From an uncultured Candidatus Saccharibacteria bacterium (GTDB lineage Bacteria > Patescibacteriota > Minisyncoccia > Phycocordibacterales > CSBR16-119): 64,000 nucleotides of DNA. Under the pieces are notes generated by a model that made no database searches, had not been told where the DNA came from, and saw nothing but the letters and a program-made list of their open reading frames with translations. The position numbers and the translations under genes are program-made. This document shows positions 1,638-62,470 of the stretch, in pieces; positions within the stretch are counted from its first letter, which is position 1, and each line of letters opens with the position of its first letter. The DNA lies in assembly GCA_964426385.1 (NCBI GenBank), contig CAYRQF010000001.1:167939-231938 (forward strand), in the 5' to 3' direction.

Positions 1638-1688
1638 AGGTTTATTTTACCATTTTCTATAACCTATGACCTATTACCTACAACCTCG

Positions 1689-2685: not shown

Positions 2686-3129
2686 TTAGTTATCTAATTT
2701 TAAAATTCTTCTCTTGTGACGCTCGTCTCCAGAAAACTTTGTCTCGAGAAACAAGTCTACTGCACGCTTGGCCTCTTGTTCAGAAATAAATCGGGCGCCA
2801 AGAGAAAGAATATTTACATCATTGTGCTCGCGAGCAAGTTTTATGATTTCCTCCTGACCACCGTAGTACACAGCCGCTCGTACACCAAAGAGTCTGTTAG
2901 CCTCTATCGCCTCGCCGGTTCCTGATCCACCGATTACAATCCCCATGGCACCAGAATCAACTTCAGCGACCCCTTCAGCAACTAGGGCAACAAAGTCTGG
3001 ATAATCGTCTGCAGGATCTAAATGGTCGGGGCCCTTGTCCACAACTTCGTGACCCATGAGTTCAAGGTGGCTCACAAGAACCCTCTTCATCTCAAACCCG
3101 GCATGATCTGATCCAATAAATAGCTTCAT
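2686..3129 (-). CDS. rpiB: Ribose-5-phosphate isomerase B
   Basis: 147 aa; MKLFIGSDHAGFEMK... matches the RpiB/LacAB family N-terminus and length. Confidence 0.9.
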   Translation of the reverse strand: MKLFIGSDHAGFEMKRVLVSHLELMGHEVVDKGPDHLDPADDYPDFVALVAEGVAEVDSGAMGIVIGGSGTGEAIEANRLFGVRAAVYYGGQEEIIKLAREHNDVNILSLGARFISEQEAKRAVDLFLETKFSGDERHKRRILKLDN

Positions 3130-3132
3130 AGT

Positions 3133-3210
3133 GATTAGCTTTTAGCTTCTAGCTTTATTAAACTGGTAATTATCATTTTCATTGTACTAAAAGCTAACAG
3201 CTATAAGCTA
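3133..3210. repeat. Inverted pair of TAGCTTN heptamer repeat blocks (CTAGAAG family) between gap and rpiB
   Basis: GATTAGCTTTTAGCTTCTAGCTTT lies at about 3133-3158, and CTAAAAGCTAACAGCTATAAGCTAGCAGCTGAC at about 3176-3208. The two blocks carry an 11-bp complementary core, TTAGCTTTTAG / CTAAAAGCTAA. Confidence 0.6.
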
Positions 3211-4235
3211 GCAGCTGACTTTAATACATGCTGTATTAAAGTTGCAGTATAACCGTACTCGTTATCATACCAGGCCATGACTTTCACCAAGTTTCCTCCG
3301 ACAACACGTGTCATCTCGAGATCTACGATTGAGGGAACAGTGACGCCGATAATATCTGACGAAACTATCGGTTCATCAGTAACGGCGAGAAGACCTTTCC
3401 AACGAGAACTTCGCGAAGCATCTGTAAGTAATTTATTAACTTCTTCTACGGTAGTTGGTTTCTTAGAAATAAATGTTACATCAACAAGAGAACCCACAGG
3501 TACTGGCACGCGGATAGATATACCGTCGAATAGTCCGGTAAGTGCTGGAAAAGCTTTGGTCACGGCTATCGCCGCACCGGTAGAGCTCGGAACGATGTTT
3601 TCTGCAGCAGCACGACCTTCGCGCAGATCTTTCTTCGACGGTCCGTCAACGAGGGCTTGAGACGCAGTATAGCCGTGAACTGTCGAAAGGATCGCCTTCT
3701 CGATACCGAGAGACTCATGAAGCACCCCGATAAGAGGAGATGCGGCGTTAGTCGTGCATGACGCGTTTGAAGTTATGTCGCAGGTACCGAATTTATCTTC
3801 GTTCACACCGAGAAGTATCGTCTCGCCCGGAACTGTTCCATCACTGTCCTTGGCCGGAGCAGAAATCACAACTTTTTTCGCACCTTGGTCGATGTGGAAC
3901 TTCGCCTTATCAAATGATGTAAATAATCCTGTCGACTCGACTACGACATCTATGTCGAGCTCTTTCCACGGGAGTCCTGCAGGATCTTTGGATGACACGA
4001 ACCGAGTTTCAAGTTTTTTAGTTCCGTCGGATACAACAAGGTTGCCATTAGAGAAATCAACTGAGAAAGGTGCACGGCCATATACTGTGTCGTACTTGAG
4101 TAGGTACGCGAGACTCTCGGCTGTTCCGAGATCGTTCACAGCAACGACTTCGATATCGTCCCTCTCCCACGCCATTTTGTAGAATGCTCGGCCGATACGA
4201 CCGAAACCGTTTATTGCAACACGAACTTTTTTCAT
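3201..4235 (-). CDS. gap: Glyceraldehyde-3-phosphate dehydrogenase
   Basis: 344 aa; INGFGRIGR Rossmann motif and the ASCTTNA active-site Cys motif. Confidence 0.95.
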   Translation of the reverse strand: MKKVRVAINGFGRIGRAFYKMAWERDDIEVVAVNDLGTAESLAYLLKYDTVYGRAPFSVDFSNGNLVVSDGTKKLETRFVSSKDPAGLPWKELDIDVVVESTGLFTSFDKAKFHIDQGAKKVVISAPAKDSDGTVPGETILLGVNEDKFGTCDITSNASCTTNAASPLIGVLHESLGIEKAILSTVHGYTASQALVDGPSKKDLREGRAAAENIVPSSTGAAIAVTKAFPALTGLFDGISIRVPVPVGSLVDVTFISKKPTTVEEVNKLLTDASRSSRWKGLLAVTDEPIVSSDIIGVTVPSIVDLEMTRVVGGNLVKVMAWYDNEYGYTATLIQHVLKSAASL

Positions 4236-4601: not shown

Positions 4602-6010
4602 TTCAATATCTCTTGGAGTATTTTAAGAGCAAGCTGAGGATTCGCAGAACCTTTGGATTCTTTCATGAACTGCCCTACTAGAAACTGGATAGATTTCTCA
4701 TTGCCTGCTTTGTAGTCAGCGACAACTTTTTCATTTGCGGAGATAACAGTCTCGGCAATAGCTTTTAGCTTACTTTCGTCGAACTCTTGGATAAGTCCGT
4801 GTTCTTTGGCGTAGGATTCAGGGTCGATATCCCCCGTTACTAATGCGGCGATAAGATCCTTGGCGGCTCTAGAATTTATCTTGTTATCTCCGAGCATCTT
4901 CATAATCTTGCCGAAGCTCTCAGCTTTTGGAAGCTTGAAGTCTGCATTAGCTGAACGAAGTCCTGACAAGTCTGACAAAATATAGTTCGCAGTTTTCTTG
5001 ACCGCCTCACCCGTAAGCCCGGTCGCGATAACTTCCTCGAAGAATTTAGCGAGTTCTGGATCTGTTACGAGTATCTCTATGTCCTCGGCTTTGATACCAA
5101 AATCCTTCACATATCGTTCACGCTTCGTAGATGCGAGTTCTGGAAGATTGCTTCGCATTTTCTCTAGATCAAATAATTCATGGAGGTACATTTTGGGAAT
5201 ATCAGGCTCTGGGAAATATCGATAGTCATGAGAATCTTCTTTCTTTCTCTGAGAGAAAGTCACCTGCTTGTTTTCGTCCCATCCGCGAGTTTCCTGGACG
5301 ATTTCAGCACCCCTGCCCTCCTCGATAAGCGCGATATGTCGCTTGATCTCGAAGTCTGCCGCTTTCTCGACGGCTTTGAATGAATTTATATTCTTCACTT
5401 CAACTTTCGTTCCAAACTTATCCGTATCAGAAACAGAAAGGTTGAGCTCCACGCGCATCTCGCCCTTTTCCATGTTCGCATCAGATACGCCGAGTGTTCG
5501 TAGAAGTAATTGTAATTCACGACCGAAGTCACCCGCCTGCTTGGCAGAATGAATTACTGGCTCAGTCACGAGCTCCATGAGCGGTACGCCAGCACGGTTA
5601 TAGTCGATGAGTGAGAAGTCGCCACGATCGTGTTTGTTATTCGCCGTGTCTTCCTCGAGATGAACTCGAGTCACCTGCACACCATTCAGCTCACCGCCAG
5701 AAACGATCGGATATTTGTATTGAGAGATTTGGTAGCCCTTGGGGATATCGGGATAGAAATAGTTTTTGCGGTCGAACTCAGTGAAGTTCGCGATATTTGC
5801 GCCGATAGCGAGACCGACTTTGACCACAGACTCTACGGCCTTCATATTCGGCACAGGCAAAGTTCCCGGATGCGCCATGCACACAGGACAGACATTAGAG
5901 TTAGGTTGTTCCTCATCGGGATTGTTCCTGCAAGCGCAGAACATCTTGGTGATGGTTTTTAGCTCGGCATGAATTTCGAGACCGATAGTTACTTTATATT
6001 TAGAATCCAT
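4598..6010 (-). CDS. gatB: Asp-tRNA(Asn)/Glu-tRNA(Gln) amidotransferase subunit B
   Basis: 470 aa; MDSKYKVTIGLEIHAELKT...CPVCMAHPGTLP is the typical GatB N-terminus. Confidence 0.95.
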   Translation of the reverse strand: MDSKYKVTIGLEIHAELKTITKMFCACRNNPDEEQPNSNVCPVCMAHPGTLPVPNMKAVESVVKVGLAIGANIANFTEFDRKNYFYPDIPKGYQISQYKYPIVSGGELNGVQVTRVHLEEDTANNKHDRGDFSLIDYNRAGVPLMELVTEPVIHSAKQAGDFGRELQLLLRTLGVSDANMEKGEMRVELNLSVSDTDKFGTKVEVKNINSFKAVEKAADFEIKRHIALIEEGRGAEIVQETRGWDENKQVTFSQRKKEDSHDYRYFPEPDIPKMYLHELFDLEKMRSNLPELASTKRERYVKDFGIKAEDIEILVTDPELAKFFEEVIATGLTGEAVKKTANYILSDLSGLRSANADFKLPKAESFGKIMKMLGDNKINSRAAKDLIAALVTGDIDPESYAKEHGLIQEFDESKLKAIAETVISANEKVVADYKAGNEKSIQFLVGQFMKESKGSANPQLALKILQEILK

Positions 6011-7328: not shown

Positions 7329-7370
7329 ATAGGTTAGCTTCTAGTCGCTAGCTTATAGCTTCTAGAAACG
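7329..7370 (-). repeat. CTAGAAG-family heptamer repeats immediately upstream of obg
   Basis: Plus-strand TTAGCTTCTAGTCGCTAGCTTATAGCTTCTAGAAAC. In the obg sense this reads CTAGAAG CTATAAG CTAGCGA CTAGAAG CTAACCT..ATG. Confidence 0.6.
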
Positions 7371-7381
7371 ATATTTTAAAG

Positions 7382-8275
7382 TTAACTGTTTAATGCCTTT
7401 TTAGCAAGCGCGATAGCGCCCTCGCGAGACCGGGCCCCGGCCAGGAATCTCTTCGGATGAGCAAAGACTGCATCAGAAACTCCACTAACCTTCTGAAGTT
7501 CTGCCTCAGGTAGTCCAGCCCAAGCTTCTGGGAGAGCCTTGCGAGGCTTAAACATCTCGGCCTCTACCGTCTGCACATGCCAAGCGCCCGTAATATGCGG
7601 ATAGACGGCATATATCGTGTCGGGTTTGTGTTTCAACACCCCATGCCATGGCCAGTACTGATCGAGAACGATGACTTCCTTGTTACGAGCATGCTCATAC
7701 GCCTCCTCAACATGGTGACGACCCTCTACCTTGTCACAAGTTTTTTTTATGAGACGTGTGAGTATCTCAGTTGCGACTGAGACTAGCGTCATGAAGTGTC
7801 TGTCATTTTCCCGAGAGTCTTCTTTCCATGTTGAGTTAAAATACGCCACAACATGCGATATCTCTACCGGAGTGATATCGCGGTTTATAGGCTCATAGAT
7901 GACGTGTCCGGTGTCGTGGGCGTCTATCGGGGTGACGAAGTCTTCGTCGATCTCTCGCCATATCTCAGCTGAACCTGCTATGGCCTCGCCATAGTGACGC
8001 CAGACGAGTCCGAACGCCGCATACGGCATGCCGTTCTCCCTCTCTCCTGCACCACCACGCTGATGATGGTCGAAGCGATTATGTTCGGCCTTGTATACCC
8101 CACCAACATCGAAAACGAAGTCTCCCTTTTGGAACATTTTCTCGTCACGTGTACGCACGAGCTTCCAAGGAAGCTTCTGCTTCTTCAGATACAGCGACAG
8201 TGTTGCAGCGGCGAACACATCGTCTGCATGAAACGGACCGTTATGAGTTACTAAGAGTCGTTTTCTTTTAAACAT
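7382..8275 (-). CDS. MYG1-family metal-dependent hydrolase (UPF0160)
   Basis: 297 aa; the N-terminal THNGPFHADDVFA motif is typical of MYG1/UPF0160. Confidence 0.8.
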   Translation of the reverse strand: MFKRKRLLVTHNGPFHADDVFAAATLSLYLKKQKLPWKLVRTRDEKMFQKGDFVFDVGGVYKAEHNRFDHHQRGGAGERENGMPYAAFGLVWRHYGEAIAGSAEIWREIDEDFVTPIDAHDTGHVIYEPINRDITPVEISHVVAYFNSTWKEDSRENDRHFMTLVSVATEILTRLIKKTCDKVEGRHHVEEAYEHARNKEVIVLDQYWPWHGVLKHKPDTIYAVYPHITGAWHVQTVEAEMFKPRKALPEAWAGLPEAELQKVSGVSDAVFAHPKRFLAGARSREGAIALAKKALNS

Positions 8276-8276
8276 C

Positions 8277-8621
8277 TTAATCTTTTTTCTTGGTTACGTG
8301 ATCAGCTATCCAGTTCAGGACTGAAACGATGAGCGAACCGAGGAATGCTGCCATGAATCCGTCGACAGTCATCCCTGGGACAAGTCCGGAAACGAACCAG
8401 AAGAATAGAGCGTTAAGTATGAGGAGGAAGAATCCTAGAGTGAGGAGCGTGATAGGTAGTGTCAGAATCTTTACTATCGGCTTCACGGCAACTTGGATGA
8501 TGGTAAGAGCCGCACCGGCGATAACTATCGAGACCCAATCAGCGAGCTCTATCCCTGGAACGAAATAGTCTGCGACAAAAACCGCGAGTGTGAGAAAAAT
8601 GAATCTGAATAAAATCTTCAT
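8277..8621 (-). CDS. Four-TMS holin-family (Phage_holin_4_2-like) membrane protein
   Basis: 114 aa with four hydrophobic helices; the VPGIEL...LTLPITLLTLGFFLLILNAL...VPGMTVDGF pattern resembles the 4-TMS holin superfamily. Confidence 0.7.
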   Translation of the reverse strand: MKILFRFIFLTLAVFVADYFVPGIELADWVSIVIAGAALTIIQVAVKPIVKILTLPITLLTLGFFLLILNALFFWFVSGLVPGMTVDGFMAAFLGSLIVSVLNWIADHVTKKKD

Positions 8622-8735
8622 CCCGTTAGAGATAGCAAATTATTAATTTGCGTACCTTTGTTAATCTTTGTAATTAAATAACCTTTGTAAATTATACCTG
8701 ATTAGCGATCTCTCAAACAGAACATCTCTAACGGG
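8622..8735 (-). promoter_or_regulatory. Structured leader/regulatory element, copy 1 (12-bp terminal inverted repeats plus internal palindrome)
   Basis: CCCGTTAGAGAT (8622-8633) and ATCTCTAACGGG (8724-8735) are perfect inverted repeats. The palindrome GCAAATTATTAATTTGC lies at 8635-8651. The element abuts the start codon of the holin-family gene and matches copy 2 at 58824-58938 at 32 of 33 positions. Confidence 0.6.
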
Positions 8736-12689: not shown

Positions 12690-13274
12690 CTATCTTACGA
12701 TTTCAGTAACATTGACCTTATACCACTCTTTCCATTCAGGCTCAACGCCATCTTTAGTCTCACGCATTTTCACTAGAACATTTTCTGAGTCCTGTAGAAC
12801 TACGAATTCATGTGTAGTGCCAGAACCTTCACATGTAGCATACGCAAATGGGATACCGTTCTCAGAAGAAGTGTCGATATATTCAGTTTCTTCGCATGTC
12901 CCTGGATGGACGCCTAGCTTGTATGGTCGGCCGAAAGTAATTGCACTGCCGTTACGAGTAAAGTCCGCGAACTCCATCTTGACCCAAGTCTGATTCGTTT
13001 CAGCGACTTCAGGACTCTCGGTATCAAATATCCACTTCACTCCCTGCCAGGCATATTCATAGTCACCTGACTGAACAGGTTGAACGACTTCGAGCGCATC
13101 GCTGTTGTCGGTTGCTTCTACAGCAGGAATAGTCTCATCAGCTGGAATGATGTCGCTATTTTTCTCCCGACTCACTAGGATTATTACGATAATAACGGCA
13201 ACCAAGATTACTCCTCCAATAATTTTATTAGTAAGACTGCCGTTAACCCCGCCCCTGTTATTTGTATCTGCCAT
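12690..13274 (-). CDS. Membrane-anchored hypothetical protein
   Basis: 194 aa with an N-terminal TM anchor (IIGGVILVAVIIVIILV) and a Cys-containing extracytoplasmic domain. Confidence 0.55.
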   Translation of the reverse strand: MADTNNRGGVNGSLTNKIIGGVILVAVIIVIILVSREKNSDIIPADETIPAVEATDNSDALEVVQPVQSGDYEYAWQGVKWIFDTESPEVAETNQTWVKMEFADFTRNGSAITFGRPYKLGVHPGTCEETEYIDTSSENGIPFAYATCEGSGTTHEFVVLQDSENVLVKMRETKDGVEPEWKEWYKVNVTEIVR

Positions 13275-31865: not shown

Positions 31866-32333
31866 TTATTCGATTCCGAGAATCGTGTACTCTATCGCTC
31901 CAGCTGGACTATCAAATATTACCTTGTCACCTTTCTTGCGCTCAAACAATGCACCGCCGAGTGGTGACTGATAAGAAATTCTTCCGGTAGCCATATCTGC
32001 CTCGCCTTCGCCAACAACAGTATAAATCTTTTTCTCTTTGTCTCCTTTCTTCTGGACAGTAACATCTGAGCCGATACCCACCATATCCCCTTTGTGTCTA
32101 GCAGAAACAACCTCAGCGTCTTTTAGAATCCTTTTGATCTCGCGAACGCGGTCCTCGAGTTTCGCCTGGGCTTCACGAGCCTGGTGATATTCGGCATTTT
32201 CAGAAAGATCGCCAAGTGATTTGGCGAACTCTAAAGCTTCGATTATCTCTTTGCGCTCCTCACCTTCGAGGCGCCGTAGCTCCCCCTCTAGTTCTAATTT
32301 ACGCTCTTTGGTTATCAGTTCTTTGTCTATCAT
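31866..32333 (-). CDS. greA: Transcription elongation factor GreA
   Basis: 155 aa with an N-terminal coiled coil (...DLSENAEYHQAREAQA...) and a C-terminal FKBP-like domain. Confidence 0.95.
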   Translation of the reverse strand: MIDKELITKERKLELEGELRRLEGEERKEIIEALEFAKSLGDLSENAEYHQAREAQAKLEDRVREIKRILKDAEVVSARHKGDMVGIGSDVTVQKKGDKEKKIYTVVGEGEADMATGRISYQSPLGGALFERKKGDKVIFDSPAGAIEYTILGIE

Positions 32334-58445: not shown

Positions 58446-58823
58446 CTAAGAACTCACGATGACACTGAACCCGCCATACGCCATACGATTCATATCAAAA
58501 GGCATCGGTTTGTTCGCATACTTCGGATCATTCATCGTCGGATCCTTCATGACTTTCGCATTGACCGCATCTCTATGAGCTCGCGACTTGAAAAGAATAT
58601 ATGAGAACACCACGAGCTCTCCTGGCTTGGCGTTCGCCATTTTACCAAAAGGCATCAGTACATGTTTCGGTTTCGGATCTTCGATAACACACTCTTTGTA
58701 ATCGAGTGCTCCGTGCTTCATCCAGAGTTTGCTTCCCATCGTCGCCATCTCTTTATAATCCGCAAGCTTCTTCTTAGATACAACCATCACAAAACCGTCG
58801 ACATAATTACCTATATTTTTCAT
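58446..58823 (-). CDS. DUF1428 (YbaA-like) domain protein
   Basis: 125 aa; ...YVDGFVMVV...GALDYKECV...VVFSYILFKSRAHRDAVNAKVMKDP...GGFSVIV fits the DUF1428 pattern. Confidence 0.7.
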   Translation of the reverse strand: MKNIGNYVDGFVMVVSKKKLADYKEMATMGSKLWMKHGALDYKECVIEDPKPKHVLMPFGKMANAKPGELVVFSYILFKSRAHRDAVNAKVMKDPTMNDPKYANKPMPFDMNRMAYGGFSVIVSS

Positions 58824-58938
58824 CCCATTAGAGATAGCAAATTATTAATTTGCACAGCTCGTTTATAATTTGTAATTAAACTTCTAACATCCATTTACCT
58901 AACCCTGTGATCTTATAAACTTCCTGATCTCTAACGGG
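58824..58938 (-). promoter_or_regulatory. Structured leader/regulatory element, copy 2
   Basis: CCCATTAGAGAT (58824-58835) and ATCTCTAACGGG (58927-58938), with the palindrome GCAAATTATTAATTTGC at 58837-58853. The one mismatch in the terminal repeat becomes a G-U pair in the minus-strand transcript. Confidence 0.6.
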
Positions 58939-60133: not shown

Positions 60134-61825
60134 CTAGATGCCCTCGGCTTTCTTCTTGGAAAGCTCAGCGAAAATTCCTGTTCCTCTGACGAGGCCAAGT
60201 GGAGTAAGCACCTCATCTCGGTAATGTTCCTGGAATCTTATTAGGGCACCCTCTGTTCTAGAAGAGAAAAAAATTGTTTCATTACCAGGTGAACCATACC
60301 CCGATTCACCCAGAAGAAATCCTTCACAGTTTAAAAACTTCTGTAGACTTCTAACATCTTCGCCCTGCACACCGAGTTTCAAAACTCTCTGCGGTATCTC
60401 TAGCCCACATTTACCAACTTCAGATTTATCGGATTCGGTGTTCGCCACACTTTGGTTTTCTTTTTTTAATAAATTTATGACTGGCGATGTATTCCTATTG
60501 GCAAGATTTCTAGTCCTGGCCGACACAGTAGTCCCCGTAGAGGTATTTGATACTGGTGGCAACAAAGCAAACTCGGCGCTCACTGAAATATTCGCAGAAA
60601 CATTTATATCGGTTCTCGGATTTTGAACAGAAGCGTCTGACCACTGCACGAATTCATATCCATTATCTGGTACAGCCGTTACAGCTGTACCGTTATCGCC
60701 ATCGAGCACGGTCTGAGAACTTGTTCCTACTAGCACCCCACCTATTCCCGCCACATATTCTAGATCATAAGTCACAGCCTCATCAGTAGTAAAAGTTAGC
60801 TCCGCACCATAACTTGTCCCTTCTGAATTTGTTGCATACGCCCGAATATAGTAATCGGTTTCTGGAGAAAGCCCGGTGACAGAACTTACAAACACCCCTG
60901 TTCCGGTGCCGTCTAATGTACAATCATCGCTAGTTGTTGCCGGAGAAACGACACTCCAGCAGACACCCCTGGTGGTAACTTCAGCACCTTGGTCATCCGT
61001 CACATTTCCGCCTGTACTTGCTGTATTTGCTGTCACGCCAGTGACGCTCTCTGTTGAAACGATCGGAGCACCTTCTTCTACAAACACAGCACCACCCTCA
61101 AGCTCAATTAAAAAATCATCTATTTTTTCCATCCGTGAACCCGCTGCTGCAAAAAATCCGTGAATTATACTGGCACCCCCTAGGTCAGCATTAACCACTC
61201 CGTCCAATGTCTTCTCTGTTTTCATTGAGCCCAGAACCCCGCTCGCATCAGAATTCCAGATTTGAAATACTAAATCATAGGTATTGTTACCTTGCGCCGA
61301 AACCTCAAAGATCATTTTATACCAGTTCCCGAGGACCAAATCTGGTGGCCAAGACACGTCTGTATACACTCTATTATTAACAAATGAGCCACCCCCTCCA
61401 TGAAATGACATTCCGATACCCTTGAGCGGATGCCCTGTGAAGTCACCTGAGTTTGTATCTGAGTTAGAAAATCCTAATCCTCCATAACCACCGTTTTGCT
61501 GGATTTTGAAATATGCGCTAAACGTATACACGTCACCAGCACCAGCAACACTATAGCCCTGCTTCGTAGTCCAAATATCAGTTGTACCCAGTGGAACATT
61601 TATTGAGCCAGTGTTCCCTATCCCCCCTGTTGCCATATTAGTAAATTGGGCCGACCCATCAGAATTAAAAAAATCTGTCAGGTCTGTCGTATCATTAAAA
61701 TCAACGAGATTGGTAATGAGCGCATGCGCATTACTTGGTACACAAAAAGAGGCGGTAAAAATAACTCCGGCGAAGAAGAACCAAATAAGCTGAATGATTT
61801 TTAATTTGTAGTTATTAGAACTCAT
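60134..61825 (-). CDS. Secreted lectin/LamG-like plus Ig/FN3-like protein with a C-terminal peptidoglycan-binding (PG_binding_1) domain
   Basis: 563 aa with a signal peptide and Gly/Thr-rich beta domains. The C-terminal ...VRSLQKFLNCEGFLLGESGYGSPGNETIFFSSRTEGALIRFQEHY... resembles PG_binding_1. Confidence 0.7.
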   Translation of the reverse strand: MSSNNYKLKIIQLIWFFFAGVIFTASFCVPSNAHALITNLVDFNDTTDLTDFFNSDGSAQFTNMATGGIGNTGSINVPLGTTDIWTTKQGYSVAGAGDVYTFSAYFKIQQNGGYGGLGFSNSDTNSGDFTGHPLKGIGMSFHGGGGSFVNNRVYTDVSWPPDLVLGNWYKMIFEVSAQGNNTYDLVFQIWNSDASGVLGSMKTEKTLDGVVNADLGGASIIHGFFAAAGSRMEKIDDFLIELEGGAVFVEEGAPIVSTESVTGVTANTASTGGNVTDDQGAEVTTRGVCWSVVSPATTSDDCTLDGTGTGVFVSSVTGLSPETDYYIRAYATNSEGTSYGAELTFTTDEAVTYDLEYVAGIGGVLVGTSSQTVLDGDNGTAVTAVPDNGYEFVQWSDASVQNPRTDINVSANISVSAEFALLPPVSNTSTGTTVSARTRNLANRNTSPVINLLKKENQSVANTESDKSEVGKCGLEIPQRVLKLGVQGEDVRSLQKFLNCEGFLLGESGYGSPGNETIFFSSRTEGALIRFQEHYRDEVLTPLGLVRGTGIFAELSKKKAEGI

Positions 61826-61866
61826 ACTGGTATGACTCGTAAATTATACCAAGAATAATAATTTAC

Positions 61867-61903
61867 TCCAGACAAATTCTCATAGCTGCGGGACTAGGGC
61901 TCG
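61867..61903. repeat. 37-bp direct repeat, copy A (duplicated tRNA-Gln 3' end plus 18-bp flank)
   Basis: TCCAGACAAATTCTCATAGCTGCGGGACTAGGGCTCG is identical to 62054-62090. The two copies flank a GC-rich 146-bp segment. Confidence 0.8.
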
Positions 61904-62053
61904 GTCACAAATCACTAAGTCTTTTATTTCGCTCTGCTCATAAAATCCAAAGTGTTCGCGACCCCGCCTCGGCACTCCACCCTGCTTTAGCAGGCGTGCC
62001 TGCGGCCTTCTCGCCCTCAGACGACACCGCAATGCAAATTTGCCATGGAAGAA

Positions 62054-62090
62054 TCCAGACAAATTCTCATAGCTGCGGGACTAGGGCTCG
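62054..62090. repeat. 37-bp direct repeat, copy B (overlaps the genuine tRNA-Gln 3' end)
   Basis: Identical to 61867-61903. Confidence 0.8.
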
Positions 62091-62143
62091 AACCTAGATA
62101 CCCAGGACCAAAACCTGGTGTCCTACCATTAGACGATCCCGCA
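62073..62143 (-). tRNA. tRNA-Gln (anticodon UUG)
   Basis: On the minus strand: TGCGGGA TC GTCT AATGGTA GGAC A CCAGG TTTTGGT CCTGG GTAT CTAGG TTCGAGC CCTAG TCCCGCA G. The 7-bp acceptor, 5-bp anticodon stem and T arm all pair. Confidence 0.8.
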
Positions 62144-62145
62144 AT

Positions 62146-62180
62146 ATATCAGCTTCTAGTGGCTAGCTTCTAGCTTCTAG
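62146..62180 (-). repeat. CTAGAAG-family heptamer repeats immediately upstream of tRNA-Gln
   Basis: Plus-strand CAGCTTCTAGTGGCTAGCTTCTAGCTTCTAGTAAAAC. In the tRNA sense this reads CTAGAAG CTAGAAG CTAGCCA CTAGAAG CTGATATA followed by the tRNA. Confidence 0.6.
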
Positions 62181-62269
62181 TAAAACTAATGACGTCATTT
62201 TGCCTCAAAATAGAGCTTAAATCAAGGAAGTGATAAAATAAAACTACCTTAAAAATTAACCAAATATTT

Positions 62270-62470
62270 ATGTCAAAAACATTTGCTTGGATATTAGTCA
62301 TCCTTATCATCGCTTTTGGAATCTGGAAATTCAAAACTTCTGACAAAGTCCTCATTCAACCCGACGAGAATGTTGCCTGTACCATGGAGGCCAAGCTCTG
62401 CCCTGACGGAAGCTCTGTCGGACGCCAAGGCCCAAACTGTGAATTCTCTGCCTGCCCTGGTCCTCAATAA
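62270..62470 (+). CDS. Small secreted/membrane-anchored protein with four Cys (66 aa)
   Basis: N-terminal anchor (FAWILVILIIAFGIW), then CTMEAKLCPDG...CEFSACPGPQ. Confidence 0.5.
   Translation: MSKTFAWILVILIIAFGIWKFKTSDKVLIQPDENVACTMEAKLCPDGSSVGRQGPNCEFSACPGPQ

Follow-up and report, generated by a model that had tools for sequence, protein, structure and literature searches.

(CTA-N4)n heptad arrays as candidate 5′ leaders between promoter and start in a largely leaderless, Shine-Dalgarno-free Paceibacteria lineage

We analysed a 64,000-nucleotide (nt) stretch of contig CAYRQF010000001.1 (hereafter, the window), in which short tandem arrays of heptamers stand directly upstream of obg, rpiB and a tRNA-Gln gene, all three of them on the minus strand. 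The host, a bacterium with a tiny genome, belongs to a Paceibacteria lineage of the candidate phyla radiation (CPR), in which the use of Shine-Dalgarno (SD) sequences is essentially nil and genes are largely leaderless. A preliminary description of the window had presented the blocks as a family of CTAGAAG heptamers, and they proved to be a genuine oriented family directly upstream of gene 5′ ends. Yet CTAGAAG is not the unit that defines them, since only CTA is conserved. Judged from comparison with relatives, the arrays are best described as (CTA-N4)n heptad leaders, probably inserted between promoter and start, and not as canonical promoters or SD elements. The three sense arrays of the window are as follows.

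7331..7365, minus strand: obg leader array, CTAGAAG CTATAAG CTAGCGA CTAGAAG CTAACCT, then ATAT; it ends 4 nt before the ATG (7326)
3125..3152, minus strand: rpiB-proximal sense array, CTAGAAG CTAAAAG CTAATCA CTATGAA; the ATG (3129-3127) lies inside the 4th unit
62146..62180, minus strand: tRNA-Gln-proximal array, CTAGAAG CTAGAAG CTAGCCA CTAGAAG CTGATAT, then AT; it ends 2 nt before the tRNA 5′ end (62143), which was set by ARAGORN and Rfam

Tandem Repeats Finder assigned the window arrays a period of 7 with 3.1-4.3 copies. All three sense arrays are intergenic or abut a gene start, with 0-8 nt between their ends and the ATG or the 5′ end of the tRNA; the last rpiB unit enters codons 1-2, and codons 2-3 (AAG CTA) carry the heptad repeat onward. 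The distances reported before were essentially right and have been shifted by a few nucleotides, to 4 nt at obg, to an ATG inside the last unit at rpiB and to 2 nt at the tRNA. When TAGCTTNTAGCTT was searched for with at most 1 mismatch, 7 matches were found in the window versus 0.34 expected from dinucleotide shuffles, one of which (4759-4771) is a coding coincidence inside gatB (ESKLKAIAE). The two protein genes were confirmed with Pfam (GTP1_OBG and LacAB_rpiB); GAPDH is encoded upstream of rpiB and MYG1 upstream of obg. Rfam returned only two tRNAs, whether the whole window was searched at the gathering threshold or 61700-62300 at E ≤ 1, and a literature search for the heptamer strings gave nothing relevant. 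The idea that restriction-modification or methylation might underlie the motif was not borne out, since the observed-to-expected ratio of CTAG, about 0.65 by a hand estimate from a count of 159, is an ordinary value.

The evidence that carries our description comes from the MYG1-obg junction, which was compared between the window and 8 fetched relatives (L257-L264; Obg identity 80-100% over the whole series). From the MYG1 stop codon to the obg ATG, with the arrays in parentheses, the junctions read as follows.

Window (Obg 100%): TAA CTTTAAAATATCGTTT (CTAGAAG CTATAAG CTAGCGA CTAGAAG CTAACCT) ATAT ATG
L257 (96%): TAA CTTTAACTTATCGTTT (CTAGAAG CTATAAG CTAACCA CTAGAAG CTAATCT) ATAT ATG
L258 (93%): TAA GTTGAACAAACT ATG; array-less
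L259 (91%): TAA TTTA (CTAGAAG CTAGTCA CTATCCA CTAATCA CTTATCT) C ATG
L260 (88%): TAA T (CTAATA CTAATG CTAGTGC CTAATGC CTAGCGC CTAACAA CTAACTC) ATG
L261 (86%): TAA TCT...TGTTAATTT...CTT (CTAACCT CTAATTT CTAAATC) ATG
L262 (85%): TAA TCT... (CTACTTA CTACTTT CTACGTA CTACGCA CTAATCA) AA ATG
L263 (84%): TAA CTTTAAG (CTAATAG CTAAAGG CTAATGG) CCAACAGCTCAAAAAT ATG
L264 (80%): TAA CGTTAGGATAT ATG; array-less

A −10-like TAAnnT starts at the MYG1 stop codon in all nine loci (TAACTT, TAAGTT, TAATTT, TAATCT or TAACGT). Where no array is present, it lies 9 nt (L258) or 8 nt (L264) from the ATG, which is the normal leaderless spacing of the clade, and in the other 7 of the 9 loci 3-7 CTA-N4 units stand between the two. 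Because the array-less relatives hold TAAnnT at leaderless spacing, we conclude that the array was inserted between a −10-like element, itself conserved, and the ATG. We infer that TAAnnT is the −10 of the obg promoter; if so, the arrays would form a 5′ leader. The corresponding region of the window is given below.

7373..7384, minus strand: putative obg −10 region, TAACTT (7384-7379) over the MYG1 stop TAA, and a second hexamer, TAAAAT (7378-7373)

Two further loci were compared in the same relatives. At fba, L260, L262 and L263 have GATAAT at the end of rpiB, followed by TAG, 4-5 CTA-N4 units and the ATG; in the window, the corresponding GATAAC is 7 nt from the fba ATG. At rpiB, the gap stop and the rpiB start overlap in L258 (ATAATGAAAATA) and there is no array, whereas the window keeps ATGAAAAT 48 nt upstream of the present rpiB start. 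A predicted upstream open reading frame (uORF) begins there, runs on through the sense array and ends 5 nt short of the rpiB ATG.

3135..3182, minus strand: uORF of 15 codons (MKMIITSLIKLEAKS, then stop), opening at the ancestral rpiB start remnant (ATGAAAAT)

The number of units at obg varies between species, from 3 to 7, as would be expected of a phase-variable contingency switch in which heptad gain or loss by slippage toggles the downstream gene; promoter or 5′ untranslated region repeats of pathogens offer a precedent, according to works cited in PMC4679880. We consider such a switch highly improbable. No copy-number variation among close strains was seen in a small sample, in which three independent metagenome contigs of the same species (L001-L003, 99.4-100% identity) carry an identical array and L257 has the same 5 units as the window, differing by 3 substitutions, 0 of them in CTA. 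Contigs of the window species occur in SRR12762274, SRR12762323 and ERZ3602260. Moreover, imperfect units disfavour slippage, and the downstream genes are core housekeeping genes.

Next to position, the arrays have in common a trinucleotide in a 7-nt register. Among 52 units of 11 obg leaders, the information content was 1.86, 1.86 and 1.73 bits at positions 1-3 (C, T and A) and 0.12-0.27 bits at positions 4-7, and the identity of units between arrays was 0.96/0.96/0.92 at positions 1-3 versus 0.26-0.30 (random) at positions 4-7, a contrast that is inflated somewhat by the phasing of units on CTA, with CTA-less in-phase edge units kept in the set. Such CTA-less units are confined to the edges, and interior units always have CTA. 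Since CTA is near-invariant and the spacers are random, these data point to selection on (CTA-N4)n. Between L131 and L133, whose Obg 4-fold sites are 70% identical, 0/15 CTA positions have changed versus 8/22 of the others. UAG is present only in the CTAG variant of the window, the relatives using CUAA, CUAC and CUAU, and the AAG tail of the window units is a lineage-specific, recently homogenised spacer.

The register was also visible in a broader clade set, which comprised 80 metagenome loci with Obg relatives at 53-71% identity (L124-L203; 717 kb) and yielded 733 sense-oriented upstream regions. CTA-CTA pairs numbered 36 at lag 7 and 23 at lag 14 versus about 11 at other lags; TAG-TAG pairs had no excess at lag 7 or 14 in the same regions. 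At least three phased CTA were present in 7 upstream regions, namely, five of obg (which makes up 11% of the starts), that of the window rpiB and that of rpe in L135. The start-adjacent arrays of the clade share CTA, and their units differ from locus to locus (CTACTAA, CTATAAC, CTACAAA and CAGCTAG). By a hand count over non-independent loci, the last CTA is at −7/−8 (phase 0 or 1) in 11/16 arrays. The leaders are G-poor (4-18% G) and mostly without structure, save where CTAG palindromes self-pair.

To place CTAGAAG in a wider context, 185,579 species genomes were scanned for CTAGAAGCTANAAGCTA, which returned at least 120 loci. The matches listed come from Acidobacteriaceae (many), Bacteroidota, Vibrio, Xanthomonas, Planctomycetes, Deinococcales and at least 11 CPR genomes, and all figures given here for this family are among these matches. 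Arrays lay within long ORFs in 2/120. In the purine-rich orientation, a same-strand ORF started ≤30 nt downstream in 43/105 and a divergent one ≤30 nt upstream in 10/104; gene starts were called by a longest-ORF heuristic, so that the start distances in this 120-genome count, like the intergenic count below, carry errors. Judged by eye from the N termini, the downstream genes include rplQ, rplX, rpmC, nuoL/M, gcvPA and coaX in Acidobacteria, and rpsP, rpsC, tuf, ssb, ftsE and gltX in CPR genomes. In 13/35 of the Acidobacteria arrays, the gene-proximal unit is GGAGCTA at SD spacing; the Acidobacteria arrays are thus in part SD-related and need not correspond to those of the CPR genomes. CTAGAAG was rejected as a universally special heptad, since in viral contigs (CTAGAAG)3 occurred at 8 loci, and two scrambled heptads of the same composition at 30 and 15. 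In the clade, among tandem periods that are not multiples of 3, period 7 accounted for 118 arrays, period 8 for 43, period 10 for 33 and period 5 for 6, and of the period-7 arrays with at least 2.6 copies 41/53 were intergenic, versus about 8.5% intergenic DNA by crude gene calls.

These counts bear on a neutral explanation, in which the arrays are heptanucleotide simple sequence repeats (SSRs) made by replication slippage and now and then by copying, and tolerated in SD-free spacers, with orientation and composition filtered only by harm near starts. In prokaryotes, heptanucleotides are reported to be the commonest class of long SSRs (Mrazek 2007, summarised in PMC4679880), and the dominance of period 7 in the clade, the great diversity of units, the viral controls and the spread of CTAGAAG arrays over many phyla all agree with such an origin. 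So does the fact that the 93% relative is array-less at obg, rpiB and rpe, and a contig of the same sample at tRNA-Gln, and that the arrays of L131 and L133 have diverged nearly as much as synonymous sites. Nevertheless, neutral decay would erode all 7 positions alike, whereas CTA is invariant and the spacers are randomised. Arrays recur at obg in lineages with unrelated units, they are phased relative to the ATG, and their orientation is strict, as in the 43 same-strand versus 10 divergent starts of the CTAGAAG family; furthermore, where an array separates a leaderless promoter from the start of an essential gene, expression cannot stay unaffected. On balance, we regard a purely neutral origin as unlikely, albeit one to be kept in view.

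Expression signals of the host set the background against which the arrays have to be read. Named Obg homologues from a protein search were annotated as Candidatus Paceibacterota or Patescibacteria. An SD-like motif precedes 1/76 window genes versus 8.7% of random 13-mers. The lack of an SD sequence at obg, rpiB and tRNA-Gln, on which the preliminary description had remarked, is real, but it is no peculiarity of the three genes because the whole lineage makes almost no use of SD sequences. None of GGAG, GAGG and AGGA was found within the window arrays, and they hold no element complementary to CCUCC at 5-10 nt from the start. Genes at the head of operons are leaderless in the clade; in 100/733 genes, the strict extended −10 motif TGnTAnnnT has its end 5-10 nt (most often 6 nt) ahead of the start, and by our estimate only a handful would be expected at this distance by chance. 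Internal genes mostly have an upstream stop codon touching the start (stop/start overlap).

With promoters this close to starts, the heptads might act at the DNA level, either as degenerate −10 copies (C+TAnnAn) that make up a non-canonical or tandem promoter or as a heptad operator bound side by side. The spacing agrees with the former. TAGAAG is 11 nt before the obg ATG and TGGTAGAAT 10 nt before the ATG of the ORF at 12690-13274, GCTAAAAG is 9 nt before the rpiB ATG and GGCTAAAAT 9 nt before the ATG of the ORF at 31866-32333, and TAGAAG is 9 nt before the window tRNA-Gln versus TAGAAT 10 nt before the 5′ end of that in L068; −10 elements of clade tRNAs lie 8-14 nt before the mature end. The clade upstream regions have a CTA peak at −13, caused by TGCTAnnnT promoters, and phase 0/1 puts the penultimate unit 7-8 nt from the ATG, the canonical spacing. 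The heptads of L165 start from a genuine TGTTACTTT element, the L070 array and the window rpe array (see below) are just upstream of canonical −10 elements, and 7-bp operators are known (omega/ParB, PMC9499535; ctx heptads, bioRxiv 10.1101/2021.05.14.444153).

The composition of the units and the layout of the loci speak against a DNA-level role. No unit contains TGn, and CTAACCT, the unit next to the ATG, is the only one with a T at hexamer position 6; at 4 nt from the ATG, it is too close. On a seed-biased promoter matrix that was built from a strict regular expression (the 100/733 clade promoters with TGn and the final T) and gives scores as a rough guide, the hexamers of the arrays that stand at a usable distance reach −3 to −5, compared with ≥8 for 100 real sites. 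A conserved −10-like hexamer already lies upstream of the arrays, and canonical promoters were located upstream of the array in L036 rpsP (TGGTATAGT), L089 gltX (TATAAT) and L261 (TGTTAATTT), far upstream in the first two, and downstream of it in L070 and at the window rpe. Arrays also occur before normally operon-internal genes, rpsC in L092 and rplQ, rplX and rpmC in Acidobacteria. Finally, arrays adjoining a start always have CTA on the sense strand, whereas omega-type operators work either way (PMC9499535). We rate a DNA-level role as rather improbable. Of the three roles offered earlier, a promoter-proximal element, an array for transcription-factor binding or a processed leader, the leader fits best, as an insert after a conserved −10, and the promoter is left unsupported, with no TGn and low scores.

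The array at tRNA-Gln had been taken as an argument for a role in transcription. The obg and tRNA-Gln elements are indeed nearly identical over about 30 bp (28/30 by eye), as stated before. Homologues of the neighbouring EamA transporter led to three syntenic loci (L265, L266 and L267), and the array before the syntenic tRNA-Gln was absent in 3/3; the tRNA gene follows a GIY-YIG gene by 8 nt in L265, it is preceded by TGGTAAATC plus a 33-nt leader in L266, and nothing of the kind stands before it in L267. The window tRNA array is thus a recent duplicate of the obg element that arose in the window lineage, or the reverse. Being recent and near-identical, it says little about function and lends little support to the argument for transcription. 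Among the CTAGAAG matches listed (at least 120 loci) and the 80 clade loci, the window array is the only one that abuts a tRNA 5′ end, the L103 array following a tRNA 3′ end, and a general association of arrays with tRNAs was rejected.

L258 and L265 both come from sample ERR1352939; L258 (Obg 93%) is without arrays at obg, rpiB and rpe, and L265 without the tRNA-Gln array. Since the absences are shared by one sample, gain or loss of all four window arrays may have gone together. Apart from this, the last ~26 nt of tRNA-Gln with its trailer (CCCGCAGCTATGAGAATTTGTCTGGA) recur 187 nt downstream (61867-61892 and 62054-62079, minus strand). The GC-rich ~160 nt between the copies are near-identical after the L265 tRNA-Gln and have no Rfam match at E ≤ 1; the arrangement resembles a duplicated integration site or an as yet undescribed small RNA.

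A second class of arrays mirrors the sense class. In 179 kb of close relatives, 20 chains of at least three phased CTA were observed versus 2.15 in shuffles. Thirteen of the 20 are sense-oriented, nearly all abutting a start or a tRNA 5′ end, and the others are N4-TAG in the sense of the flanking gene, most of them directly after a stop codon. Stop-abutting TAG-type arrays follow yqeY (L257 and L261), gap and fba (window) and fba (L262). The two of the window are given below.

3187..3216, minus strand: inverted TAG-type arm upstream of rpiB, AGCTGCTAGCTTATAGCTGTTAGCTTTTAG; pairs over 12 bp with the sense array
1657..1686, minus strand: heptad array of another unit, sense GGTTGTA GGTAATA GGTCATA GGTTATA (CTAnnAC on the plus strand), between the fba stop and the rpe promoter TGGTAAAAT

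The first half of the arm at 3187-3216 encodes the end of GAPDH (SAASL, stop at 3203-3201), and the arm includes TGTTAGCTT (3199-3191), which fits the extended −10 pattern. An inverted block paired with the rpiB-proximal array had been noted before and is real, at these coordinates and over 12 bp. Its fold is not significant against shuffles, however, and the rpiB hairpin was rejected as a selected structure. A TAG-type arm that precedes a CTA-type arm and pairs with it, in differing units, was also found in L175 (z −5.2), L036 at rpsP (z −2.8) and L094 at ssb (z −2.9); L103 has no such paired-arm structure. The array at 1657-1686 is TAG-type (GGTnATA in 4-5 units) and stands after a stop codon, just upstream of the canonical rpe −10. 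At the position upstream of rpe, the relatives have GnAAGTC heptads (L260, L261 and L263), an inverted heptad pair (L262) or nothing (L258). In L135, CTATAAC, the reverse complement of the window rpe-array unit, is directly before the rpe ATG.

How might such leaders work? We tentatively favour an RNA-level triplet-repeat platform that controls initiation. According to this reading, a (CTA-N4)3-5 array inserted between the promoter and the start of a normally leaderless gene would give that gene a G-poor 5′ leader of 35-50 nt. The array would be transcribed, and CUA triplets, one per 7 nt and ending ~7-11 nt before the AUG, would be read on the RNA. Selection on a triplet in a 7-nt register suggests a reader in which each 7 nt are served by one small pocket; the putative reader would be single-strand-specific, a HutP/TRAP-like oligomeric RNA-binding protein or possibly the small ribosomal subunit, and its binding would set the usage of the AUG. 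An inverted UAG-type arm upstream, as at rpiB, could sequester the CUA array in a hairpin. New copies would arise via slippage and the copying of whole elements, and the tRNA-Gln copy, as a recent duplicate, may be a passenger. A wider proposal is that (CUA-N4)n leaders are operators of an unrecognised post-transcriptional regulon of Paceibacteria, with an oligomeric RNA-binding protein of 7-nt register as reader, functionally analogous to HutP or TRAP, and UAG-N4 arms as anti-operators; this is doubtful as a whole. Its members would include obg, rpiB, fba, rpe and the genes for ribosomal proteins S16 and S3, EF-Tu, SSB, FtsE and GltX.

Several observations weigh against the RNA-level platform. 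The transcribed leader would hinge on a conserved hexamer that begins with the three bases of a stop codon. The 4th unit, TAGAAG or TAAAAG, sits almost exactly at the position of TAGAAT or TAAAAT in canonical promoters of the same genome and at the L068 tRNA-Gln. No candidate binding protein was identified, the genome being covered over 64 kb only and no protein search having been made. A role in translation leaves the tRNA-adjacent copy unexplained, save as a passenger. The fold of the window rpiB hairpin is not significantly better than that of shuffles (z −1.2 to −1.7), and the whole-array identity of L131 and L133 (78%) is near their synonymous-site identity (70%). To these come the two limits given above, the phasing of units on CTA and the hand count of array phase.

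Pairing with the 16S rRNA 3′ tail (UAGAAG with UUUCUA) does not agree with the CUAC and CUAA variants. Two further explanations were tried and rejected. An all-frame stop-codon insulator fails on the CTAC and CTAA variants, which do not provide stops in all frames. Mobilisation by REP-associated tyrosine transposases (RAYTs) acting on repetitive extragenic palindromes (REPs) was dismissed since neither a RAYT gene (tblastn) nor the hairpin of the relatives, ATGTTCGAGGTTSAACCTCGAACAT, is present in the window. In the relatives themselves, a gene for a RAYT-like Y1 transposase separates gatB from gap (L260 11381-11977, L261 11169-11765, L262 11082-11693 and L263 9365-9976), which ATGTTCGAGGTTSAACCTCGAACAT flanks, on both sides in L260 and L261; the window has 30 nt only at that site.

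Two observations elsewhere in the window concern other gene families. The Phage_holin_4_2 paralogues at 8277-8621 and 58446-58823 share a palindrome, GCAAATTAATAATTTGC (8635-8651 and 58837-58853), followed by TGCTATCTC and the ATG, and the two elements are likely a shared operator plus promoter. Between 16556 and 24844, five genes follow one another on the minus strand, and the gene before each of them ends in a near-identical peptide (...DGD.VE.DAD.G.VKIL, then stop), suggestive of a tandem family whose members share a mobile C-terminal domain.

If the wider regulon proposal holds true, a gene that acquires such a leader would pass from leaderless translation to a leadered, regulated mode. 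Heptamers near start codons have been known for a decade in Beggiatoaceae and cyanobacteria without a mechanism. New here are a graded set of orthologous loci, some of them with the array and some without, by which the array is recognised as an insert between a conserved promoter and the start, selection that acts on a trinucleotide in a 7-nt register and not on a heptamer, and mirror-image arrays after stop codons that are able to pair with the start-adjacent class. Expression signals of CPR bacteria are almost unstudied, and those found here are SD-free and largely leaderless. A dedicated reader, if one exists, would be among the first regulatory systems described for this radiation; if there is none, the loci still amount to a natural experiment, and a clean one, in how an acquired leader is tolerated by a gene that had none.

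Among known systems, contiguous 7-bp promoter repeats are found in the operators of omega/ParB of pSM19035 (WATCACW, PMC9499535), where each heptad is bound by one RHH dimer, and in the ToxR-bound TTTTGAT heptads of the Vibrio cholerae ctxAB promoter (bioRxiv 10.1101/2021.05.14.444153). These need several contiguous copies and come in direct and inverted arrangements, the latter being a further likeness; contiguity as in omega/ParB is found in our arrays, and next to starts these are sense-only, yet inverted arms exist upstream. The operators differ in that they work either way and conserve most of the 7 bp, whereas our arrays have a strict orientation, conserve 3/7 positions and lie downstream of a presumed −10. 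Long SSRs of 5-11 bp (Mrazek et al. 2007) and the cyanobacterial short tandemly repeated repetitive (STRR) heptamers (summarised in PMC4679880) have in common with our arrays a heptanucleotide period, an intergenic position, an origin by slippage and lineage-specific units; they are usually long and near-perfect, whereas ours are short (3-7 units), imperfect, triplet-constrained and positioned at starts.

A triplet at fixed spacing with free spacers is also what HutP, (XAG-N4)3, and TRAP, (G/UAG-N2-3)n, of Bacillus recognise (PMC2425495). HutP, a ring protein, reads three XAG triplets with a U4 spacer, that is, a triplet plus a 4-nt spacer, so that its period is exactly 7 nt (PMC2425495). The window units (C-UAG-AAG) themselves contain UAG-N4-UAG. 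In both systems the site is in a transcribed leader, as it would be here if the conserved upstream −10 is used. The clade triplet is CUA, not (N/U/G)AG, and 3-7 contiguous units are present instead of two sets of three, with no terminator evident at our arrays. By analogy, the likeness to HutP and TRAP may indicate a possible mode of action, not membership in a family.

The closest known analogue is the TAACTGA direct repeat of marine Beggiatoaceae, some Cyanobacteria and some Bacteroidetes, present in 2-6 copies near starts (MacGregor 2015, PMC4679880); its function is unknown, and translational regulation with S1, Csp or CsrA as readers has been proposed (PMC4679880). Heptamer repeats near start codons have likewise been described in Nostoc PCC7120 (bioRxiv 10.1101/2022.06.06.494920). 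The TAACTGA type and our arrays share 2-6 tandem intergenic 7-nt units, in forward orientation and a few nucleotides before start codons, the lack of a canonical SD sequence, essential downstream genes such as those for ribosomal proteins and a patchy distribution, with presence in one species and absence in a close relative. They differ in the unit, which here is CTAGAAG/CTANNNN with only CTA and the spacing fixed and four free spacer bases, and in the host, a leaderless, SD-free Paceibacteria lineage. Furthermore, the arrays described here are demonstrable inserts between a conserved −10 and the ATG, and they have a mirror-image TAG-type class after stop codons that can pair with the sense arrays. 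Thus, the two are the same kind of element, of different families.

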